From: Candidatus Uhrbacteria bacterium CG_4_9_14_3_um_filter_36_7
GTDB lineage: Bacteria; Patescibacteriota; Patescibacteriia; UBA9934; GWF2-40-263
Assembly (NCBI GenBank): GCA_002791255.1
Contig: PFWS01000022.1
Coordinates: 1-28,958, forward strand
Length of the DNA: 28,958 nt
Direction of reading: 5' to 3'
Numbering within the stretch: position 1 is the first letter of the stretch; each line of letters opens with the position of its first letter. A program made the translations under genes and the position numbers. Positions 5,647 to 15,610 of the stretch are shown piece by piece. The notes below the pieces were generated by a model that was given only the letters and a program-made list of their open reading frames with translations, was not told the DNA's origin and searched no databases.

Positions 5647-6309
5647 ATGAAAATTTTGGTAGTTGAAGATGAACCAAAACTCAATAAGGGTTTAGTTGAA
5701 GGTTTACAAAATCGTGGCTATGCCGTTGATTTTGCTTTTGATGGGGAGGAGGGCGAACAAATGGCAAGAATCAATGATTATGATGTGATCATTCTTGATA
5801 TCATGCTTCCAAAGCGTGATGGTTTACAAGTATGTGATCATTTGCGATCTATAGGAAATCATACCCCAATTCTTTTTTTAACAGCTAGAGATTCTGTAGA
5901 AGATAAAATAATTGGGCTTAATTTAGGAGCAGATGATTATCTGGTAAAGCCTTTTTCTTTTGAAGAACTAGTTGCTAGAATTAGAACACTTCTACGTCGT
6001 CCTCGTTTTTCAACAGGGGATATTATAAAACTTGATAAACTTCATTTGGATACTCGGTCACAAGAATTGATAGTAGATGGAAAATTGATTCGCCTTACAC
6101 TGCATGAATACGGTGTTTTAGAGTATTTTTTACGCCATCTTGGAGAAGTGGTAACACGAGAAGATTTGCTTACCCATGTTTGGGATCGATTTTTTGATTC
6201 ATTTAGCAATGTTGTAGATGTGCATGTAAAGAATGTGCGTAAAAAATTACCAAAAGTCTATGCGAAACGTATTCAAACGGTCTGGGGAAAAGGGTATCGG
6301 CTTGTTTAG
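5647..6309 (+). CDS. OmpR/PhoB-family response regulator
   Basis: MKILVVEDE, DIMLP phospho-acceptor Asp, LTARD, GADDYLVKPF and a winged-helix C-terminus (VVDVHVKNVRKKL, TVWGKGY). Confidence 0.96.
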   Translation: MKILVVEDEPKLNKGLVEGLQNRGYAVDFAFDGEEGEQMARINDYDVIILDIMLPKRDGLQVCDHLRSIGNHTPILFLTARDSVEDKIIGLNLGADDYLVKPFSFEELVARIRTLLRRPRFSTGDIIKLDKLHLDTRSQELIVDGKLIRLTLHEYGVLEYFLRHLGEVVTREDLLTHVWDRFFDSFSNVVDVHVKNVRKKLPKVYAKRIQTVWGKGYRLV

Positions 6310-7309
6310 AGAACATCTTTTCCGAGCAAGAATAACTCTGACTATTCTTTATACCATTATTTTGGCTATAATTCTTTTTTTATCAAGTGGTATTACTTAT
6401 TCTTTTTTTTCTAATCGTCTTGAATATCGTTTTAATAGATTTCATCTTCCAGCTCATCTTATTCTTATTGAAGAGCGATTTGTTCCACCTCGGATTGAGC
6501 AAGTGCGCCAAGATCTTTTTCATGTTTCTTTTGCAGTTAATAGTTTGCTTCTTGTGGGAGCAAGTATTCTTAGTTATTGGCTGGCAGGAATCACTTTAAA
6601 ACCAATTCAAACATCTTACGATCGTCAACGTAGATTTTTAAGTGATGCTTCTCATGAACTTCGGACACCTCTTGCTATTTTACAGACTAATCTTGAGAAT
6701 GAAATTGGAAATACTCATTTATCTGAACATGTCCATGCACAGGCAAAAAATCATTTAGAAGAAGTTGAACGAATGAGTCGTCTAGTGCGTGATCTTTTAA
6801 CTTTATCGCGTCTTGATGAAGATGTGGTACTTAAAAAAGATTTGCAATCAGTTAATATTATTTCAAGTATTGAACAAGCCATTATACGGCTTGAACCTAT
6901 TGCTAAAAGATCATTGGTAAATCTTTATTTTTCAAATCATCCTCCAACTATTTTTATTTTGGCAAATCCTGATCTTTTACTTCAAGTATTAAGTAATGTT
7001 ATTAAAAATGGCATTATTTATAATAAGAAGCAGGGAAGAGTAGATATTGAAGTGAAGCAAAAAGGTTCCCGAGTGGAGGTGGTAATAACAGATACAGGTG
7101 TTGGCATTGATCCGCTTGAACAAGAAAAAATATTTGAAAGATTTTATCGGGTTGATAAAAGTCGATCTCGCCAAAGTGGAGGAAGTGGGCTTGGTCTTTC
7201 AATTGTAAAATCTATTATGGATCAATTTGGTGGATCTATTAGCCTTAAAAGCACTAAAGATAAAGGAACACAGGTTTGTCTTATCTTTCGTATCCACAAA
7301 GCTTCATAA
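6302..7309 (+). CDS. Sensor histidine kinase (HisKA + HATPase_c)
   Basis: Two TM helices with a short external loop, H-box DASHELRTPL, N-box NVIKNGIIYN, DTGVGI, FERFYRVDKSRSR and GSGLGLSIV. The start is uncertain: TTG 6302 overlapping the regulator stop is preferred, and the open frame extends to 6233. Confidence 0.93.
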   Translation: MFREHLFRARITLTILYTIILAIILFLSSGITYSFFSNRLEYRFNRFHLPAHLILIEERFVPPRIEQVRQDLFHVSFAVNSLLLVGASILSYWLAGITLKPIQTSYDRQRRFLSDASHELRTPLAILQTNLENEIGNTHLSEHVHAQAKNHLEEVERMSRLVRDLLTLSRLDEDVVLKKDLQSVNIISSIEQAIIRLEPIAKRSLVNLYFSNHPPTIFILANPDLLLQVLSNVIKNGIIYNKKQGRVDIEVKQKGSRVEVVITDTGVGIDPLEQEKIFERFYRVDKSRSRQSGGSGLGLSIVKSIMDQFGGSISLKSTKDKGTQVCLIFRIHKAS

Positions 7310-7335
7310 TTTCTTCATCTGGTTTTTTGTATAAT
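7302..7335 (+). promoter_or_regulatory. Second CTTCAT-N5-CTTCAT box plus TATAAT
   Basis: CTTCAT at 7302-7307 and 7313-7318, with TATAAT at 7330-7335. The 11-nt gap is the same as in the 5604 box. Confidence 0.65.
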
Positions 7336-7409
7336 TATTTTATGAGACAAGATAGATTGCATGCATCTATTTTTCTCACCTATTTATTCATAAGATTTAT
7401 CTTTTGACT

Positions 7410-7955
7410 ATGAAAATATCTACCAAAAAGATGACTATTGCAGGCTTATCTGCATTTGTTCTTATTATAGGCGCAGGTATTGCAACTTCCTTTGCTGCTC
7501 AAGGAAAAATTATTACATTTTCTGACCGAATTACTAATGAAATTGTTCATTTTGAGGAAGGTCGAGAAAATTTAATCAATGCCATTGCGGAAAAATTTAG
7601 CTTGAATGTTACTGATGTCGAAGCTGTCTTTAATGAGCATCGAGAGGAAATGTTTGCAGATCGTGAAGTTTATTTTACTCAACGAGTAAATGAACAAGTA
7701 ACAAATAGTGAGCTTACTCAAGCTCAAGCAGATGCTCTTATTGCCAAGCGCGCGGAACTTATTGATTTTGCAAAGACTTTAGAAGGAAAGAGTCCAGAGG
7801 AAATTCAGCAAATTGTGCAAGAACAAATGGAATCATTAAAAGTTTGGGCACAGGAAAATGATATTACGCTTAAAGATTTACGTGCTCTTCATTTAGGTTT
7901 TGGACCAATGCACGGATCTATGCATGGTCATGGTAAAATGATGCGTGGATTTTAA
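7410..7955 (+). CDS. Secreted helical hypothetical protein with His/Met-rich C-terminal tail
   Basis: Signal peptide ending SFA-A, predicted helical body (LINAIAEKFSLNVTDVEAVFNE) and tail GPMHGSMHGHGKMMRGF. The ORF track starts at TTG 7404. Confidence 0.85.
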   Translation: MKISTKKMTIAGLSAFVLIIGAGIATSFAAQGKIITFSDRITNEIVHFEEGRENLINAIAEKFSLNVTDVEAVFNEHREEMFADREVYFTQRVNEQVTNSELTQAQADALIAKRAELIDFAKTLEGKSPEEIQQIVQEQMESLKVWAQENDITLKDLRALHLGFGPMHGSMHGHGKMMRGF

Positions 7956-8328
7956 CCAGTCGTTTTATAACAAAAACAGTCGGATTAAATTCCGGCTGTT
8001 TTTGATTTAGCGGCAGGTTCACGTCCTCTTTTACGTCTTTATCTTCTAGAATGACTCCGTCAATTATTTCAGCAGCGTGAAAGCTGCCGACTGCTTGATT
8101 GAGTTTTTCGATAGCAACAAGACATCCCCCCTCGTCTGTTTCTGGTGGCAGATTCATTCCATACCCCCACCAGAGTCCATACACCACCCCCGCCATAAGA
8201 GCATATGAAATTAACCAATCTACAATAACGATTACAGGAAGAATCCATGTCCATACGTTTCTAGTATCTACCTTACCATTTTTCCAGACTTTCTTTTGTG
8301 TTTTTTGTATCCATTGACAAAGAAACAT
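7918..8328 (-). CDS. Hypothetical single-TM membrane protein (ORFan), C-terminus doubtful
   Basis: GAGGG SD before the ATG, its own TTGACA-17-TAACGT promoter and a hydrophobic segment followed by an acidic domain. The last ~30 codons run through the terminator and overlap the convergent gene. Confidence 0.55.
   Translation of the reverse strand: MFLCQWIQKTQKKVWKNGKVDTRNVWTWILPVIVIVDWLISYALMAGVVYGLWWGYGMNLPPETDEGGCLVAIEKLNQAVGSFHAAEIIDGVILEDKDVKEDVNLPLNQKQPEFNPTVFVIKRLVKIHASFYHDHA
7972..8003. terminator. Bidirectional intrinsic terminator
   Basis: AAAAACAGTCGGA-ttaaat-TCCGGCTGTTTTT, 17 nt after the 7955 stop. Confidence 0.8.
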
Positions 8329-8429: not shown

Positions 8430-11348
8430 CTATCCTATTTCCTGCCCGCTGATTTTCGCAAATAATAGGAAAACAACTGTAAGCCCAATAGTCATAACAA
8501 TTGGAGCAATAATAGATATCCAGTTTCTTTTTCCAGGTGCAAAACGTTTGAGGAATAGGGAATTAGTAACAACAGATACTGAGCTAAAAGCCATAGCAAG
8601 GCCAGCAAGTTCTGGTTTTAAGATAATACCAATGCCAGCAAAAACACGCGCTGCCACAGGGATACCAATGGTATTATAGAACAAGGAGAAGAATAGATTT
8701 TGTTTAATTTTGCTTAAGGTCTCACGGCTAAGGGCAATTGCTGTTACAACATCTTGTAAATCACTTTTCATAAGTACCATCCCGCCAGTTTCCATAGCAA
8801 CATCTGTGCCAGCTCCCATTGCAATACCAACATCCGCTTGAGCTAGAGCCGGAGCATCATTAATTCCATCTCCAACCATTGCAACTGTAAGGCCAGTGGC
8901 TTGAAGTTTTTTGACTTCATTTGCTTTATCCTCTGGAAGCACTTGTGCAAGCACGTTATCAATACCAACTTGTTTAGCAATTGCTTGGGCAGTGCGTTCA
9001 TTATCTCCAGTAATCATAAAGACTTGTAGACCAAGACGCTTAAGTTCGCTTACAGCTTTAGCTGATGTTTCTTTGACAGTATCAGCTACCGCAATAATTC
9101 CTAAAATTTCTTTATCTGTGGCAAGCAACATCGCTGTTTTTCCAGCTTCTTCTAGACGTTTCATTTTTCGTTCAGCTGTGTGTGAATCAAGGTGAATATA
9201 ATCATCTATAAGACGACGATTGCCCAAATAATAGGTTTGTCCATCGACGACTCCACGTACTCCGTGTCCAGGAATAGCTTGGAAATCAGATGATTGTGGA
9301 ATAATTATTTCCTCATCTTTGGCATATTGGCAGATAGCTTCCGCAAGAGGATGCTCTGATTTTTGCTCAAGAGAGGCAGCAATTTCCACTAAACGTTCTT
9401 CATCTGAAAGAGAAAGACCAACAATATCTGTAAGCTCTGGTTTGCCTTTGGTAAGAGTTCCAGTTTTATCAAAGATAATAGCCTTTACTTTGCAAGCGGC
9501 CTCAAGTGGTTCTCCACCCTTAATAAGAATTCCATGTTCTGCTCCCTTGCCAGTGCTAACCATAATAGCAGTCGGAGTTGCAAGCCCAAGCGCGCATGGA
9601 CAAGCGATTACAAGTACGGCTGTAAAAGCCATAAGAGCAAAACTTAAAGAAGATCCAAGAAAAAGAAACCAAACGATAAATGTAAGAAGAGCTATTATAA
9701 TAACTGCTGGAACAAACCAAGAAGAAATACGGTCAGCAAAAGCAGCAATAGGTGCGCGTGAAGATTGAGCTTCTTCAATCATGCGAATAATCTGCGAAAG
9801 CATTGTTTCTGATCCAACCCCAGTAGCTTTAAATTGAAAGTTTCCATTTTTGTTAATGGTCGCGCCAATTACTCTATCACCAATTTGTTTTTCAACAGGC
9901 AAACTTTCACCAGTAAGCATTGATTCATCGATTGATGAGGAACCACTGACTATTTCTCCATCTACAGGCACTTTTTCTCCAGGGCGAACTTCTACAATAT
10001 CTCCGATAACTACTTCTTCAATAGCAATATCAAAAGTTTTGCCTTCTCGAATAACACGCGCTGTTTTTGCTTTAAGCCCCATTAGTTTTTTAATTGCCTC
10101 AGAAGTTTGACCCTTAGCTTTGCTTTCAAGCCATTTTCCAAGAACAACGAATGTAATTAAGAAAGCAGCAGTTTCAAAATAAAGTTCAGGAATTTTTTCT
10201 CCATTTAAACCAAGAATACTTCCTTTTGTGACAGCATATATAATTATGTTTATAAGACTATAGAAGAAAGCAGCAGAGGTTCCAATTGCAATCAAACTAT
10301 CCATGTTGAACATTCTCATGCGTAAACTAGACCAAGCCCCTTTGTAGAATCCAGCTCCAATCACAAATTGAACCGGAATTGTGAGAACTAGAGAAATAAT
10401 TCCCACCCAAGGAAGGATTTGTGATCGTAGAGGGAAAAATGATATAAAGTCGAGCAACATGAAAAAGAGCATTGGTAAACTAAGAATGAATCCAGCAATA
10501 AATTTTTTCCAATAGGAATTTGTTTCTGCTTGTCGTCGCAAGCGTTCTTCTTCCGGGTTTGCTGTGCTTGCTATTTTTGCAGAATACCCAGCTTTTTTTA
10601 CACGTTCGATAATCTGTGGCATGGAAACCTTGGCAGAATCATACACCACACGTGCTTTGGCAGCAGCAAAATTTACACGAGCTCCTTCAATGCCATCAAG
10701 TTTTTTAATACTCTTTTCAATAAGCCCAGCACAAGAAGCACAGTGCATGCCAGTTATAAGAAGTGTTTCTTGTTTTTTTCCGGAAGCCATAGTAGCTTCT
10801 TGTTTTTCCGACTCTGTTATTGACGTTTGTGCGGGCATTATCGAGGTAGGTGTTGTGTTTTGATCAAGACGTTTAGTTCCATCAAGTGTAAGACCAAGGT
10901 GCAGAGTCCTTGATAAATGATCGACGATTTTTTGAAGATCAGGAATATCTTTTGGTGAATCCACGCTTTGTTTTTTTGAGACAGTTACTACCCCTTCAAA
11001 AGTAGGAGAACCTGTTTTGTCTGTTTGCACTTTTCCTTCCGCAGTTGCTGTCATTTCATAAGAGAGTTTGACATGTCCTTCAGGAGATATGTCGTGTTTT
11101 GTTTCAGATTTTTCTTTGATCGTCTCCGATGTAGTTGTCTCTATTATTTTTGTTTCATATCCAAGATTTTGGATTTCTTCAACAATCTTTGTTACATCGG
11201 CTTGTTCATTAACTTCAATATCACCTGTGCCTTTTTGGGAATCAATATTTGAATGCACAACACCTGGTAAATCTTCTAAAGCTAAAGCAATAGTCTTTTC
11301 ACAAGAAGCGCAATGCATTCCTTTAATTTGTAGATGAATCATTTTCAT
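8430..11348 (-). CDS. copA: Cu(I)-translocating P1B-1 ATPase
   Basis: Two GMHCASC metal-binding domains, [26 protein letters not shown], and the Cu+-specific YN (FYNT) and MxxSS (MAFSS) motifs. Confidence 0.96.
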
Positions 11349-11354
11349 AGAATT

Positions 11355-11561
11355 TTAGACCTCCTTTATATGATAACCGTTTTTTTCAAGTTCTTTGTTG
11401 ATAACACTTAAATCAAGATGGGTTTTAGAAACTATATTAGTTGTTCCATCTTCTTTAATATCAACAGATTGTACGCTTTCCATTTTTTTTATGATTATTT
11501 GGCACAGCTTTGCGCAAGAAGTGCAATGCATGCCAATAATCGTGAATGTTTGTTGAGTCAT
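11355..11561 (-). CDS. copZ: CopZ-like copper chaperone (HMA domain)
   Basis: 68 aa with GMHCTSC, located between the cupredoxin fusion gene and copA. Confidence 0.85.
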   Translation of the reverse strand: MTQQTFTIIGMHCTSCAKLCQIIIKKMESVQSVDIKEDGTTNIVSKTHLDLSVINKELEKNGYHIKEV

Positions 11562-11567
11562 AGAGAT

Positions 11568-13364
11568 TTATTGCACATGAATAAGAGCTCGTCCCATTCC
11601 CATTGGGCAAGTGATTTCATAATCTCCTTTTTCAGTAGGAATAAAGTTAATTGTTGTTGGTGATGGATAAGTATCATCGACTGCAATACCAAGTTCTTCA
11701 TTATAAAAACCAACCATACAACCAATAGGAACAGAATCTGGAGTTATGGTCCATTCAGCTGGAATATTTACAGAAACAGTAAATTCATCTGGTGACAAAA
11801 TACTATCTGACTCAATAGATTTAATAATCTGTTTGTTTCCACTCATGATAGCTTTTTGAGATATAGTATTGGAATTATCTGTATTTAATAATGAGGAAGA
11901 TGGTCTTCTGCCTCCGCATGAAGTGGACGTTGAATCAGTATTATCAGCATAAGCCGCTTGTGCTTGGGCGGTGATACCACTAGTTTTCCCACTTGTCTCT
12001 ACCACATCAAAATATCCTCGATACATACCCATAGAGCAGGAGAAGGGAATGCGTCCCGTTTTTTGTGGGGTAAATTCAATAATGTTCTCACCCTTTTTTA
12101 GATTTTTTTGAATTCCCAAACTTGGAACACTTAAGGCAACCGCGCAACTAAATTGGCTTTGTGAAGTAATAACCCAGCGTACTGGAATACCCTTAGTAAT
12201 CGTAAAGCGATTTGGTTTATAGCCAGACACTTCTTGAGTCATACGTACAATTTGTAAGTTGACTTGGTTTTCAACTGAAGTATTTGTCGTAGTTTTTTGG
12301 GAAGTATCATTGCTAAAACCCGCTAAAACCATAGCATTACTAAAGTTTAGTAAACCAAAGATGAACAAAGCAAGCCCGACTGTTGCATAGAATTTTTTTG
12401 CAAATATTCCTTTAATAACTGATGTGAGCCCACCAATACCAATAAGGGCTGGTGCCGTACCTAGGGCAAAGAGTCCCATAGCAATAGCGCCTTGTGTAAA
12501 ATTTCCAGTACTAATAGCATATAATTGCATAGCCTGAGTAAATCCGCATGGCAAGAAGAAAGTCAAACTTCCCATTATAAATGATGAACGATGGCTATAT
12601 TCTTTTTGGTGTTTTGAAAAACCAAAGCGTTTTGCTAACCAGCCGGGGAGAGTTAATAGAGAACCTTCACTTATGCGTGGTGAAATACCTGATAATTTAA
12701 TACCAAGCACGGTCATGACTATAGCAATAACTAATGTGAGTAACGCGAGAGTACTGTTTGATAAACGGAAAAACTCGCCTAAAGACCCAAGTAGTCCTCC
12801 TAAAAATGCATAACTAAGCACACGACCTGTATTGAAATACAGGTGTGGTCGGAATTTTTGCCAAGCCGAAGCTTCTGGATGTTTTTCCGCGTGTCTAGAG
12901 GAAAGACCCAAAACTAAGCCACCCACAAGAGCCATGCAGGTAGATACACCTGCTACAAGCCCAACAAAAATAGCAAAAAATGGAGTAATAGTACTTGTTT
13001 CATTGAGAGATATATCAAAAATTCCTATATTTTTTCCGATCCAGTAGAGAATAAAAAGTAAAAATCCAGCTCGGATGAGATTTTGATAATCATTTTTATC
13101 TTTAGAAAACCAAGGTGATTTTCCTTTTTGGCCAATTTCATACCCAGCCTTTTTAATTGCTTGTTCAAGTTCTGTTTGATTAACAGCTTGGTCAATTTTA
13201 AGGTTGACATGAACAGTAACAAGACCTTGTTTTACATTAACATTAACTTTTTGAACGCCAGGCAATTCCTTAAGAGCCTGATCGATTACAAGTTCGCAAG
13301 AGCTACAATGAAGTTTACGAACAGGTATTATTATTGCGTGATAATTTATATGGTTTTGTTTCAT
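11568..13364 (-). CDS. HMA - DsbD_2/TauE-like membrane domain - tandem CupA-like cupredoxin fusion protein
   Basis: N-terminal LHCSSC HMA domain, membrane domain with GVSTCMALVGG and FFLPCGFTQA, and two C-terminal cupredoxins ending FSCSMGM and ITCPMGM. ATG 13364 is preferred; the ORF track starts at 13379. Confidence 0.9.
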   Translation of the reverse strand: MKQNHINYHAIIIPVRKLHCSSCELVIDQALKELPGVQKVNVNVKQGLVTVHVNLKIDQAVNQTELEQAIKKAGYEIGQKGKSPWFSKDKNDYQNLIRAGFLLFILYWIGKNIGIFDISLNETSTITPFFAIFVGLVAGVSTCMALVGGLVLGLSSRHAEKHPEASAWQKFRPHLYFNTGRVLSYAFLGGLLGSLGEFFRLSNSTLALLTLVIAIVMTVLGIKLSGISPRISEGSLLTLPGWLAKRFGFSKHQKEYSHRSSFIMGSLTFFLPCGFTQAMQLYAISTGNFTQGAIAMGLFALGTAPALIGIGGLTSVIKGIFAKKFYATVGLALFIFGLLNFSNAMVLAGFSNDTSQKTTTNTSVENQVNLQIVRMTQEVSGYKPNRFTITKGIPVRWVITSQSQFSCAVALSVPSLGIQKNLKKGENIIEFTPQKTGRIPFSCSMGMYRGYFDVVETSGKTSGITAQAQAAYADNTDSTSTSCGGRRPSSSLLNTDNSNTISQKAIMSGNKQIIKSIESDSILSPDEFTVSVNIPAEWTITPDSVPIGCMVGFYNEELGIAVDDTYPSPTTINFIPTEKGDYEITCPMGMGRALIHVQ

Positions 13365-13372
13365 AGAATAAA

Positions 13373-13427
13373 AAAACACAAGAATAAAATATTTCTTTCT
13401 TAAAAAGAAAAGATATCCTTGTGTTTT
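13373..13427 (-). promoter_or_regulatory. Intercistronic stem-loop between the leader ORF and the first cop gene
   Basis: Perfect 10-bp outer stem (13373-13382 / 13418-13427) plus imperfect inner stem ATATCTTTTCT/AGAAAGAAATAT. It starts immediately after the leader TAG and ends 8 nt before ATG 13364. Confidence 0.65.
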
Positions 13428-13793
13428 CTATTCTCGTTTGATAATTGTAAGCAGCGGATCTGTGTCGCGGAAAACATTCGATTTAAGAAAAATAGTATTT
13501 ATTTTTTTTGTTAAATTAATAGGGAAGATAATGGGTTCTGTAATCAATAAGACATTTTCTAAAAGTGGTGAAACTGTTTTGGTTTCTACTGTTGTTTTCG
13601 TTTCGTTCTTTACCAAAGACAAACAATGAAGAGCACAACTATGAGGTATATTTATTGGTATGGAAGTTTGATTACTGCTACAAGGATGTTTTTGAGAAGT
13701 ATGTTGATGCGCAAAAACAGCTCGCGGTCCAAAAATAAGAGCGATTATTATAAAAGATAAAAGAAAAAATTGAGAAAATTTATGATGCATCAT
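13428..13793 (-). CDS. Secreted His/Cys-rich leader protein, putative copper-sensing upstream ORF (CutF/DUF2946-like architecture)
   Basis: Signal peptide ending AVFA, then HQHTSQKHPC...HSCALHC (CxxHC) and C-terminus DPLLTIIKRE. It is the first gene of the cop cluster. The start could be ATG 13793, ATG 13790 or TTG 13808. Confidence 0.7.
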   Translation of the reverse strand: MMHHKFSQFFLLSFIIIALIFGPRAVFAHQHTSQKHPCSSNQTSIPINIPHSCALHCLSLVKNETKTTVETKTVSPLLENVLLITEPIIFPINLTKKINTIFLKSNVFRDTDPLLTIIKRE

Positions 13794-13813: not shown

Positions 13814-15610
13814 TTACATTACTTGATGTCGACGACGTTCGTGTTCTTTGAGATATCGTTTGCGAATACGAATTGATTTTGGTGTTACTTCAACTAGTTC
13901 ATCTTGATCAACGTACTCGAGAGCCCGTTCAAGATTCATTTCCATAGGTGGTGTGAGTTTGATGGCCATATCAGCACCAGAGGAACGCATATTTGTGAGT
14001 TTTTTACCACGAATGGGATTTACTGTTATATTTTCTTTCATACTCATTCCAATTACCATTCCTTCATATACTTCCACACCCGCATCAACAAAAAGCGGTC
14101 CACGATCTTGCAATCCTTCAAGGGCGTAAGCTGTGGTTACTCCATCAAAGCCAGAGATAATAGATCCAGTTGTTCGGCGATTAATTTCGCCTTTCCATGG
14201 AGCATAATCAGAGAATTGATGAGAAAAAGTTCCTTCTCCTTTTGTATCTGTTAAAAATTCAGAGCGATATCCAAGCAGACTACGAGTCGGAATATTATAT
14301 TCCAAACGAGTCGAACCATTTTCACTTTTCATATTTATCATTTCTCCTTTGCGCACTCCAAGCTTTTCAATGACTGATCCTACGTAAGCATCTGGTATAT
14401 CTATCACTGCAATTTCAATTGGCTCTAGGGTTTGTCCATCTTTTTCTTTAACAATCACTTTTGGTTGGCTTACTTCTAGTTCAAATCCTTCACGTCTCAT
14501 TTGTTCAATAAGAATCGATAAATGCATTTCTCCTCGACCGCTTATGGTAAACACATCACCAGCATCTGAAAATTCAATTTTTAATCCAACATTTACTTCA
14601 AGCTCTTTAAGTAGTCGATCGCGAATTTGTCTGGAAGTGATAAGTTCTCCTTCGCGTCCAGAAAACGGAGATTTATTGACAGCAAAATCCATTTTAAGAG
14701 TTGGTGGATCAATGGCAATAGTAGGGAGTGGTTCAGCTTGTGGATCTTCAGCAATGGTATCTCCTACATAAATTTCTGGAATACCAGCTATTTGAATTAT
14801 ATCCCCAGCTTCTGCTTCTGTAACTTCAATTTTATTTAATCCTTGATGATTAAAAAGTTTTGTTACTTTATAGTTTGATCGACTTCCATCTGGGGAGATA
14901 ACAGTTACTATCATGCCTGTGCGTAGTTTTCCTTCATAAATACGTCCAACAGCTAAGCGTCCAACATAAGAATCGTAAGCAAGATTAGATGGCTGCATGC
15001 GCATAGGAACACTAGTATTATGGGCAGCTGGTGGAACACTTGAAAGAATAAGATCAAATAGGGGGCGTAAATCATTGCTTTCATCAGTAAGTTCGCGTTT
15101 GGCAATTCCCTCTCGACCATTAGTAAAAATATGTTGGAAATCGAGCTGTTCATTAGTAGCTCCAAGTTCGACAAAAAGATCAAAGACCATATTTAATACT
15201 TCGTGTGGACGTGCCATTGGTTTATCAATTTTATTAATAACCACGATCGGTTTAAGTCCAAGAGCAAGGGATTTGCGTAAGACAAATTTAGTTTGAGGCA
15301 TAGGCCCTTCAAAAGCATCAACAAGCAAAAGAACACTATCAACCATACGTAAAATACGCTCAACCTCAGATCCAAAATCAGCATGTCCTGGGGTATCGAC
15401 AATATTAATTTTTATTCCATCAAGTACAATAGCTGTATTTTTTGCATAAATTGTGATTCCACGCTCTCGCTCAAGCTCATTTGAGTCCATAACACATTCT
15501 TGAACCACCTCTCGTTCATTAAAAGTTCCAGATTGTTTAAGCAAAGCATCCACAAGCGTTGTCTTGCCGTGGTCTACGTGGGCGATAATAGCAATATTTC
15601 TAAATTCCAT
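13814..15610 (-). CDS. typA: Translational GTPase TypA/BipA
   Basis: [62 protein letters not shown] and [11 protein letters not shown]. Confidence 0.98.

Follow-up and report, generated by a model that had tools for sequence, protein, structure and literature searches.

The question raised by this locus is how a bacterium in which the familiar copper repressors were not detected might control the genes of its copper export operon. Bacteria of the Candidate Phyla Radiation (CPR) possess few transcription factors, lack a periplasm and have next to no Shine-Dalgarno (SD) sequences. The window—the whole stretch of 28,958 nucleotides that was analysed—comes from contig PFWS01000022.1 of Candidatus Uhrbacteria bacterium CG_4_9_14_3_um_filter_36_7, whose genome assembly (GCA_002791255.1) comprises 745 kb in 63 contigs and is ~85% complete. 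Sequencing runs that contain the locus are DNA metagenomes from groundwater and aquifers, with no RNA run among the matches. A first-pass annotation of the window had proposed that a small open reading frame (ORF) at the head of the copper cluster encodes a copper-sensing leader peptide, which acts together with a hairpin on a repressor-less efflux operon.

The genes of the locus are arranged in the order of transcription as follows.

End at 13814, reverse strand: typA/bipA, 20 nt upstream of the leader ATG at 13793.
13428..13793, reverse strand: leader ORF, 121 aa, from ATG 13793, with the stop codon TAG (13430-13428) within the range.
11568..13364, reverse strand: fusion of HMA, DsbD_2 membrane core and cupredoxin-like domains, 598 aa (Pfam), the putative gated gene.
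11355..11561, reverse strand: CopZ-like HMA chaperone, 68 aa (Pfam HMA).
8430..11348, reverse strand: CopA-type P1B ATPase, 972 aa, with two HMA domains (Pfam E1-E2_ATPase, Hydrolase, HMA).

The Pfam matches agree with the efflux operon of HMA-DsbD_2-cupredoxin protein, CopZ and CopA that had been read from the sequence, and the gap between the leader ORF and the fusion gene is 63 nt. Relatives of the fusion gene were found in 51 of 61 neighbouring genomes, nearly always directly ahead of copZ or copA. The 598-aa fusion protein (11568-13364) carries a second cupredoxin-like repeat at its C-terminal end. About 100 nt downstream of copA lies a 136-aa ORF (7918-8328, reverse strand) with a transmembrane segment and without a Pfam match, which overlaps the 3′ end of a convergent Met/His-rich gene described below.

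On its upstream side the leader often abuts a housekeeping gene (20 nt after typA in the window, 1–2 nt in several relatives), which leaves little room for a promoter or operator. In the loci L025, L042, L044, L045, L049 and L053, an NMNAT-like gene (..GRFQPYHIGHH..) ends 1–2 nt before the start of the leader or overlaps it; from this arrangement, the copper cassette in the NMNAT-linked loci appears to be co-transcribed with the housekeeping gene.

Four parts can be distinguished in the leader protein.

13710..13793, reverse strand: signal peptide, residues 1-28, assigned by inspection, with a cleavage-like AVFA/H.
13623..13637, reverse strand: CALHC (C53..C57), a putative metal site of the CxxxC form with His in fourth place.
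13512..13568, reverse strand: moderately hydrophobic segment P76-L94, at the hydropathy peak of the family; AF2 helix 76-89.
13431..13472, reverse strand: 14-residue tail FRDTDPLLTIIKRE, delimited by the family alignment and ending at the stop.

The signal peptide with AVFA, the CxxHC at 13637-13623 and the DPLLTIIKRE end that had been picked out earlier are thus all present. By inspection, the N-terminus (MMHHKFSQFFLLSFIIIALIFGPRAVFA, followed by HQH) resembles a Sec signal peptide, with MMHHK, a hydrophobic core and AVFA/H. The C-terminus reads ..DPLLTIIKRE, with a single Pro in the tail, and among the 1597 ORFs of the genome the leader alone has the KRE-type ending of its family. Given the family alignment, AF2 modelled three helices in all, including residues 2-27 and 76-89 (pLDDT 69, pTM 0.35); the Atlas model of the leader was poorer (pTM 0.17). 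The models point to isolated helices, with no confident globular fold.

Neither the leader nor its family had a match in Pfam or NCBIfam. Of two single-sequence searches, one returned only the protein itself and the other five hits among 1.8 billion representatives, while word-index profile searches recovered 4–7 proteins annotated as "hypothetical protein" from Candidatus Uhrbacteria or Patescibacteria. The family was instead found by position, through inspection of the ORFs upstream of fusion-gene relatives. In almost every such locus the fusion gene is preceded by an ORF of 100–140 aa with a hydrophobic N-terminus, a Cys motif and a shared ending (IIKRE, IFKRE, TQKRE, TIMRE, TIRRE, VMIRD and similar). 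A profile of 36 members, searched across the order, had matches in 84 of its 162 genomes, which represent 41 of its 55 genera; the first profile had located the family in four further families of the same class. The leader thus belongs to an unnamed small-ORF family from Uhrbacteria-type CPR bacteria, and across the loci examined the members were always linked to copper genes, as the earlier proposal required.

Only three blocks are conserved in the family alignment (A2): the signal peptide, the two Cys and the 14-residue tail. Each Cys is retained by 90% or more of the aligned sequences, with GCC replacing CxxHC in one clade, and the tail has the consensus [FH][RH]DPxxILTx[IQ]KRE, its last residue always adjoining the stop. 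The pattern foreseen in the first-pass annotation—signal peptide, CxxHC and a terminal ..KRE tail around a divergent middle—is therefore a property of the family. Across 40 loci the Arg at position -2 of the tail is encoded by all six codons (CGA, CGC, CGG, CGT, AGA, AGG), Lys and Glu each by both of theirs, and the leader ends in TAG (14 loci), TGA (10) or TAA (16). Because synonymous codons vary and all three stops occur, we take the tail to be selected at the protein level.

Spacing is conserved as well. The first Cys stands on average 66.1 residues (sd about 2.4, n = 33) from the C-terminus, with a span of 61–72 residues in 37 loci and 69 in the window protein, whereas the stretch before the first Cys measures 52 ± 9 residues (37–68, sd 9.1). 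The linker between Cys motif and tail is 42–53 residues long with a median identity of 20%, and a hydrophobic peak is centred 35–47 residues from the C-terminus across the family.

If the leader is to be a regulator, other candidates for that role have to be considered. CsoR (PF02583) and ArsR-type HTH_5 were not found in the 85%-complete genome; the sole match in a CopY-like search of the genome was a TrmB-type regulator, and in a MerR-like search a DNA methylase, with no CueR. Among the 84 genomes of the order that carry a leader, 19 have CsoR, and in the other 65 none was detected. In L004 and L006-L010, csoR lies directly upstream of leaders of the GCC type (CC type) in the same operon, and copper control in these csoR-linked loci may be purely transcriptional. 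The window itself holds a two-component system.

5647-6309, forward strand: OmpR-type response regulator.
6233-7309, forward strand: histidine kinase with two transmembrane segments and a 45-aa outer loop.

These two genes (5647-7309) lie 1.1 kb past the end of copA, convergent with it, and the kinase is followed in the same block (to 7955, forward strand) by a gene for an exported 183-aa protein that ends in ..GFGPMHGSMHGHGKMMRGF, a Met/His-rich copper-type motif. The block 5647-7955 may represent a CopRS-like system. A search near the leader for CTTCAT-N5-CTTCAT, the boxes suggested for the OmpR-type regulator, found none, even with 2 mismatches allowed. The label "repressor-less" stands in so far as no known copper repressor was found in the genome, but it needs qualifying: relatives carry csoR and a two-component system lies nearby.

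Between the leader and the fusion gene, folding revealed one dominant structure.

13366..13433, reverse strand: helix closing the intergenic region, with a 55-nt core at 13427-13373.

In its outer stem, AAAACACAAG (13427-13418) pairs perfectly with CTTGTGTTTT (13382-13373), and TTTATTCT stands between the hairpin and the ATG at 13364. The hairpin folds at -25.8 kcal/mol (z = -6.2), and none of 200 shuffled sequences was as stable. In addition, GAA-UAG (13433-13428), the last sense codon and stop of the leader, pairs with UUAUUC (13371-13366), 2 nt short of the next ATG; the helix therefore spans the entire intergenic region. The hairpin described earlier, 55 nt long with a perfect 10-bp outer stem, starting just after the TAG and ending 8 nt short of the following ATG, was correct in those respects but was only part of this longer helix.

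The same architecture recurs in the relatives. The intergenic region measures 34–69 nt in 39 of 40 loci and 93 nt in the remaining one (median 46.5 nt), and in 38 of the 40 the minimum free energy (MFE) helix starts in the stop codon or at most 2 nt past it. When the last four codons were folded along, the last sense codon and stop were paired in 32 of 40 loci, their partners being the bases directly before, or including, the next ATG. Stem sequences vary from locus to locus and pairing is kept. As a proxy for covariation, we compared cognate with non-cognate pairings by permutation: stem arms bind their own partners at -10.6 kcal/mol versus -5.4 kcal/mol for those of other loci, and tail codons bind their own start regions at -6.1 versus -4.4 kcal/mol; in neither case did any of 2000 permutations reach the cognate mean. 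The hairpins that had been predicted to follow the stop in relatives are thus present in nearly all loci, with locus-specific complementarity. RNAalifold, applied to MAFFT-aligned intergenic regions, found no consensus structure, the loci being too unlike in stem length and loop to be aligned by sequence, and searches against Rfam gave only sub-threshold chance matches.

A qualifying hairpin after the stop was present in 31 of 40 family loci as against 13 of 74 (18%) other same-strand gene pairs of the genome, so that a post-stop hairpin as such is not rare. A few loci have the fusion gene without a same-strand leader upstream, and in these no closing helix was found. Since the tail codons are also under RNA constraint, part of the conservation of the tail may be at the RNA level. 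Stop-codon read-through, or fusion to the next gene, was ruled out as a function of the region, as intergenic lengths keep no reading frame.

What such a helix might conceal depends on how ribosomes start in this organism. A GGAG/GAGG core occurs within 20 nt upstream of only ~6% of ORFs of at least 150 aa across the whole genome, position -1 is T in 75% of ORFs of this size, and start regions are A/U-rich. By this measure, translation initiation appears to be largely SD-independent. With SD sequences barely used, hiding of the start site or termination of transcription is at least as plausible a mode of action for the helix as the SD-shielding described for CutF.

Leader and helix are not tied to one downstream gene. 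Together they head four copper-linked gene types: the HMA-DsbD_2-cupredoxin fusion, copZ-copA (L032, from another family of the class), a DUF411 gene (L034) and a DUF1573 gene (L015 and L016, in genomes G033 and G007), the cassette in the last case facing away from the fusion gene. In L016 the V-I-K-R-E codons and stop pair with nine bases that end 1 nt before the ATG (z = -4.8). The DUF1573 protein of L015 and L016 is membrane-anchored and has a CMC motif; its position behind the leader is a hint of a link to copper for the DUF1573 proteins in these bacteria. In two leader-bearing genomes with other downstream genes, no full fusion protein was found. This variety downstream fits a cis-regulatory module better than a protein with a fixed partner.

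We consider it moderately probable that the ORF serves as a leader, translated and exported, with a cis effect on the copper operon like that of CutF. Comparison of the loci shows that the last two to four codons of the leader and its stop form the base of an RNA helix of 15–25 bp, the opposite strand of which is the A/U-rich start region of the next gene. As almost no gene of this genome has an SD sequence, a ribosome needs an open start region to initiate, and one that reaches the leader stop must unwind the 5′ arm and so free the next start site. The design of the system suggests that output would be set by the time for which the ribosome dwells at the stop, and this dwell time in turn by the conserved 14-residue tail inside the exit tunnel. 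For a ribosome positioned on the stop codon, the hydrophobic segment would lie 25–35 residues back, just leaving the tunnel, and the CxxHC ~66 residues back, a distance that would correspond to the length of tunnel plus translocon and would bring the motif to the membrane's outer face or past it. This geometry uses the accepted tunnel and translocon dimensions quoted in PMC9973294. Copper bound at CxxHC might then alter the pull on the nascent chain and hence the pause. From the design and its precedents, we infer a tail-prolonged stay of the ribosome with modulation by copper at CxxHC, which would be more than plain coupling between two genes.

A more far-reaching version, which we advance tentatively and with less than even confidence, is that RDPxxILTxxKRE-stop is a new proline-free arrest or termination-pause peptide which, with its 66-residue ruler, exported CxxHC and hydrophobic segment, constitutes a co-translational sensor of copper across the membrane and the main copper regulator of the export operon, in most of these reduced genomes the only one. 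It counts against the leader reading that the tail resembles no known arrest motif and contains no PP, RAPP or RGPP. Helix-mediated translational coupling is also common between ordinary genes of an operon, where sensing is not needed.

The strongest competitor, although in our judgement an unlikely one, is that the ORF encodes a stable small copper-binding protein of the cell envelope, with an extracytoplasmic CxxHC, a membrane helix and a cytoplasmic tail. Such a protein would hand copper to, or partner, the neighbouring copper proteins through a tail that serves as a protein contact, and the helix would merely couple translation to the next gene or stabilise the mRNA. The second hydrophobic segment, weak in the window protein, amounts to a clear transmembrane helix in roughly half of the family; combined with an Arg-rich tail, it fits an N-out/C-in topology in these proteins, and a second transmembrane helix with a basic C-terminal tail also suits a stable bitopic membrane protein. 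AF2 models three helices, and in most loci the gene adjoins that for the HMA-DsbD_2-cupredoxin protein. However, the stretch from the Cys motif to the tail is conserved in nothing but length, and in the GCC clade the linker is hydrophilic and the second helix missing, although the spacing stays at 68 residues. A dedicated partner is also hard to reconcile with four downstream gene types and with the occurrence of the family where the fusion protein was not found. Further points against a stable protein are that the motif ends exactly at the stop, that its codons lie in the helix and that no confident fold is predicted.

It is less probable still, and in our view improbable, that the helix is an intrinsic terminator or attenuator, with a ribosome on the leader stop covering the 5′ arm and blocking termination; if no ribosome followed closely or paused, transcription would stop before the copper genes. 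The A-tract, stem and U-tract have the appropriate shape, with AAAACACAAG ... CTTGTGTTTT then TTT here, and 3′ arms of many loci end in GTGTTTTT. The stem in the window is followed by U7 and most loci have similar U-runs, but a U-rich sequence is normal for the start regions of this genome. Attenuation would also be served by a stop that abuts the 5′ arm (38 of 40 loci) and by a leader that often lies behind a housekeeping gene without room for a promoter. A consensus terminator scan made no call, because the stems are AU-rich and the loops large. In many loci, moreover, the 3′ arm extends as far as the next start codon or overlaps it, which occlusion of the start site explains better. The two modes, transcriptional attenuation and start-site occlusion, are not exclusive, attenuation being a variant of the leader idea.

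One further property of the intergenic regions bears on a role at the DNA level. TTATTC occurs in 16 of the 40 regions between leader and gene as against 2.2 expected, often 20–26 nt before the ATG (loci L008, L010, L018, L022, L025-L027, L035, L036, L039, L040, L042-L044 and L052); in the window it lies at 13366-13371 and 13383-13388. Being the complement of GAA-TAA, its enrichment is partly explained by complementarity, which does not account for every case. A promoter inside the helix was considered and rejected: none was found by the scan, and TTATTC stands at no consistent distance from the ATG. In 33 of 40 loci the sense strand forms a more stable fold than its complement, and G.U pairs make up 15% of the total; both observations argue for RNA structure and against a DNA operator. 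That the inverted repeat is an operator for a copper repressor, or a promoter of the next gene, with the ORF incidental, is thus very improbable: a long palindrome just upstream of a copper gene and the intergenic enrichment of TTATTC would suit it, but stem sequences differ between loci while pairing is kept, the mRNA strand is the better folder and holds G.U pairs, no promoter-like site was found by the scan, CsoR, CopY, CueR and ArsR were not found in the genome, and the ORF is conserved at the protein level.

Should the reading as a cis-acting leader hold, nascent-chain metal sensing would extend beyond proteobacterial DUF2946 proteins and proline-based stalling into the Candidate Phyla Radiation. 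It would explain how copper export is controlled in the majority of such genomes, those without CsoR, CopY or CueR, and the 14-residue tail, the length ruler and the helix would be defined parts that can be tested.

The closest precedent is CutF, a DUF2946 protein of the cutFOG operon of Rhodobacter capsulatus, which has been found by experiment to act only in cis (PMC9973294; bioRxiv 10.1101/2025.02.05.636593). Both CutF and the leader are small exported proteins with a Sec signal peptide, a CxxxC-type motif and a conserved C-terminal motif, and both are followed by a short intergenic stem-loop that hides the next start region and by a copper gene. Set against CutF-like criteria, the leader has fewer than 150 aa (121 aa), a signal peptide, CxxxC and an intergenic region of less than 100 nt with a stem-loop. 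However, the leader family has no detectable sequence relationship to CutF. The Pfam model DUF2946 (PF11162) did not match the window protein at E values up to 1 and matched one of 22 family members at E = 0.95; look-alikes in the Atlas that are labelled DUF2946 (124 shared features, TM 0.31) are leads only. The leader tail is without PPP or PP, so that EF-P logic is not applicable, and no residue separates its conserved motif from the stop. The family also differs from CutF in that its Cys motif lies ~66 residues from the C-terminus. CutF shields an SD sequence, while in the helix of the leader the final codons of the leader itself pair with a start region devoid of an SD. The hosts and targets differ too: the leader belongs to a monoderm-type CPR bacterium without a periplasm, and CutF gates a multicopper oxidase, where the leader would gate an HMA-membrane-cupredoxin protein together with CopZ and CopA. 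A published survey of CutF-like proteins required a PP motif in the last 15 residues and therefore excluded the leader family by design; surveys of this kind miss whole families built on the same design.

CruR of Bordetella pertussis lies upstream of a TonB-dependent transporter and has a RAPP arrest motif, with arrest observed in vitro; its intergenic region is 162 nt long, Rho-dependent termination is involved and CruR works without a signal peptide (PMC9426467, PMC12992588). It resembles the leader in having a Cys motif and in being an upstream ORF that, through its translation, governs the copper gene behind it once transcription has begun, a control that for the leader is proposed. In contrast, none of RAPP, long intergenic region, Rho action and signal-peptide independence applies to the leader. 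Neither the window protein nor any of the 40 family tails contains a RAPP, RGPP or RAPP-like motif, and the description of the leader as CutF/CruR-like without a Pro-rich arrest motif proves accurate in that it has neither PP nor RAPP and is not a DUF2946 member. As regards the CutF/CruR-like logic as a whole, all comparative predictions were borne out, but the SD-shielding mode, like the term "repressor-less", has to be qualified.

A second group of precedents consists of force-sensing arrest peptides. In SecM, MifM and VemP, stalling has been demonstrated, and release follows from the pulling force of translocation or membrane insertion. These are exported or membrane-inserted chains in which a C-terminal arrest segment keeps the ribosome over a stem-loop that hides the next start, an arrangement like the one proposed for the leader; they differ in that they monitor Sec or YidC rather than a metal and have arrest points within the ORF or at defined motifs unrelated to ..ILTxxKRE. 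TnaC and SpeFL are short cytoplasmic peptides that have no signal peptide or Cys motif, sense small molecules in the exit tunnel and act with Rho. They share with the leader a conserved peptide that runs up to the stop codon, where in TnaC and SpeFL a halted ribosome governs the genes downstream, as is proposed for the leader.
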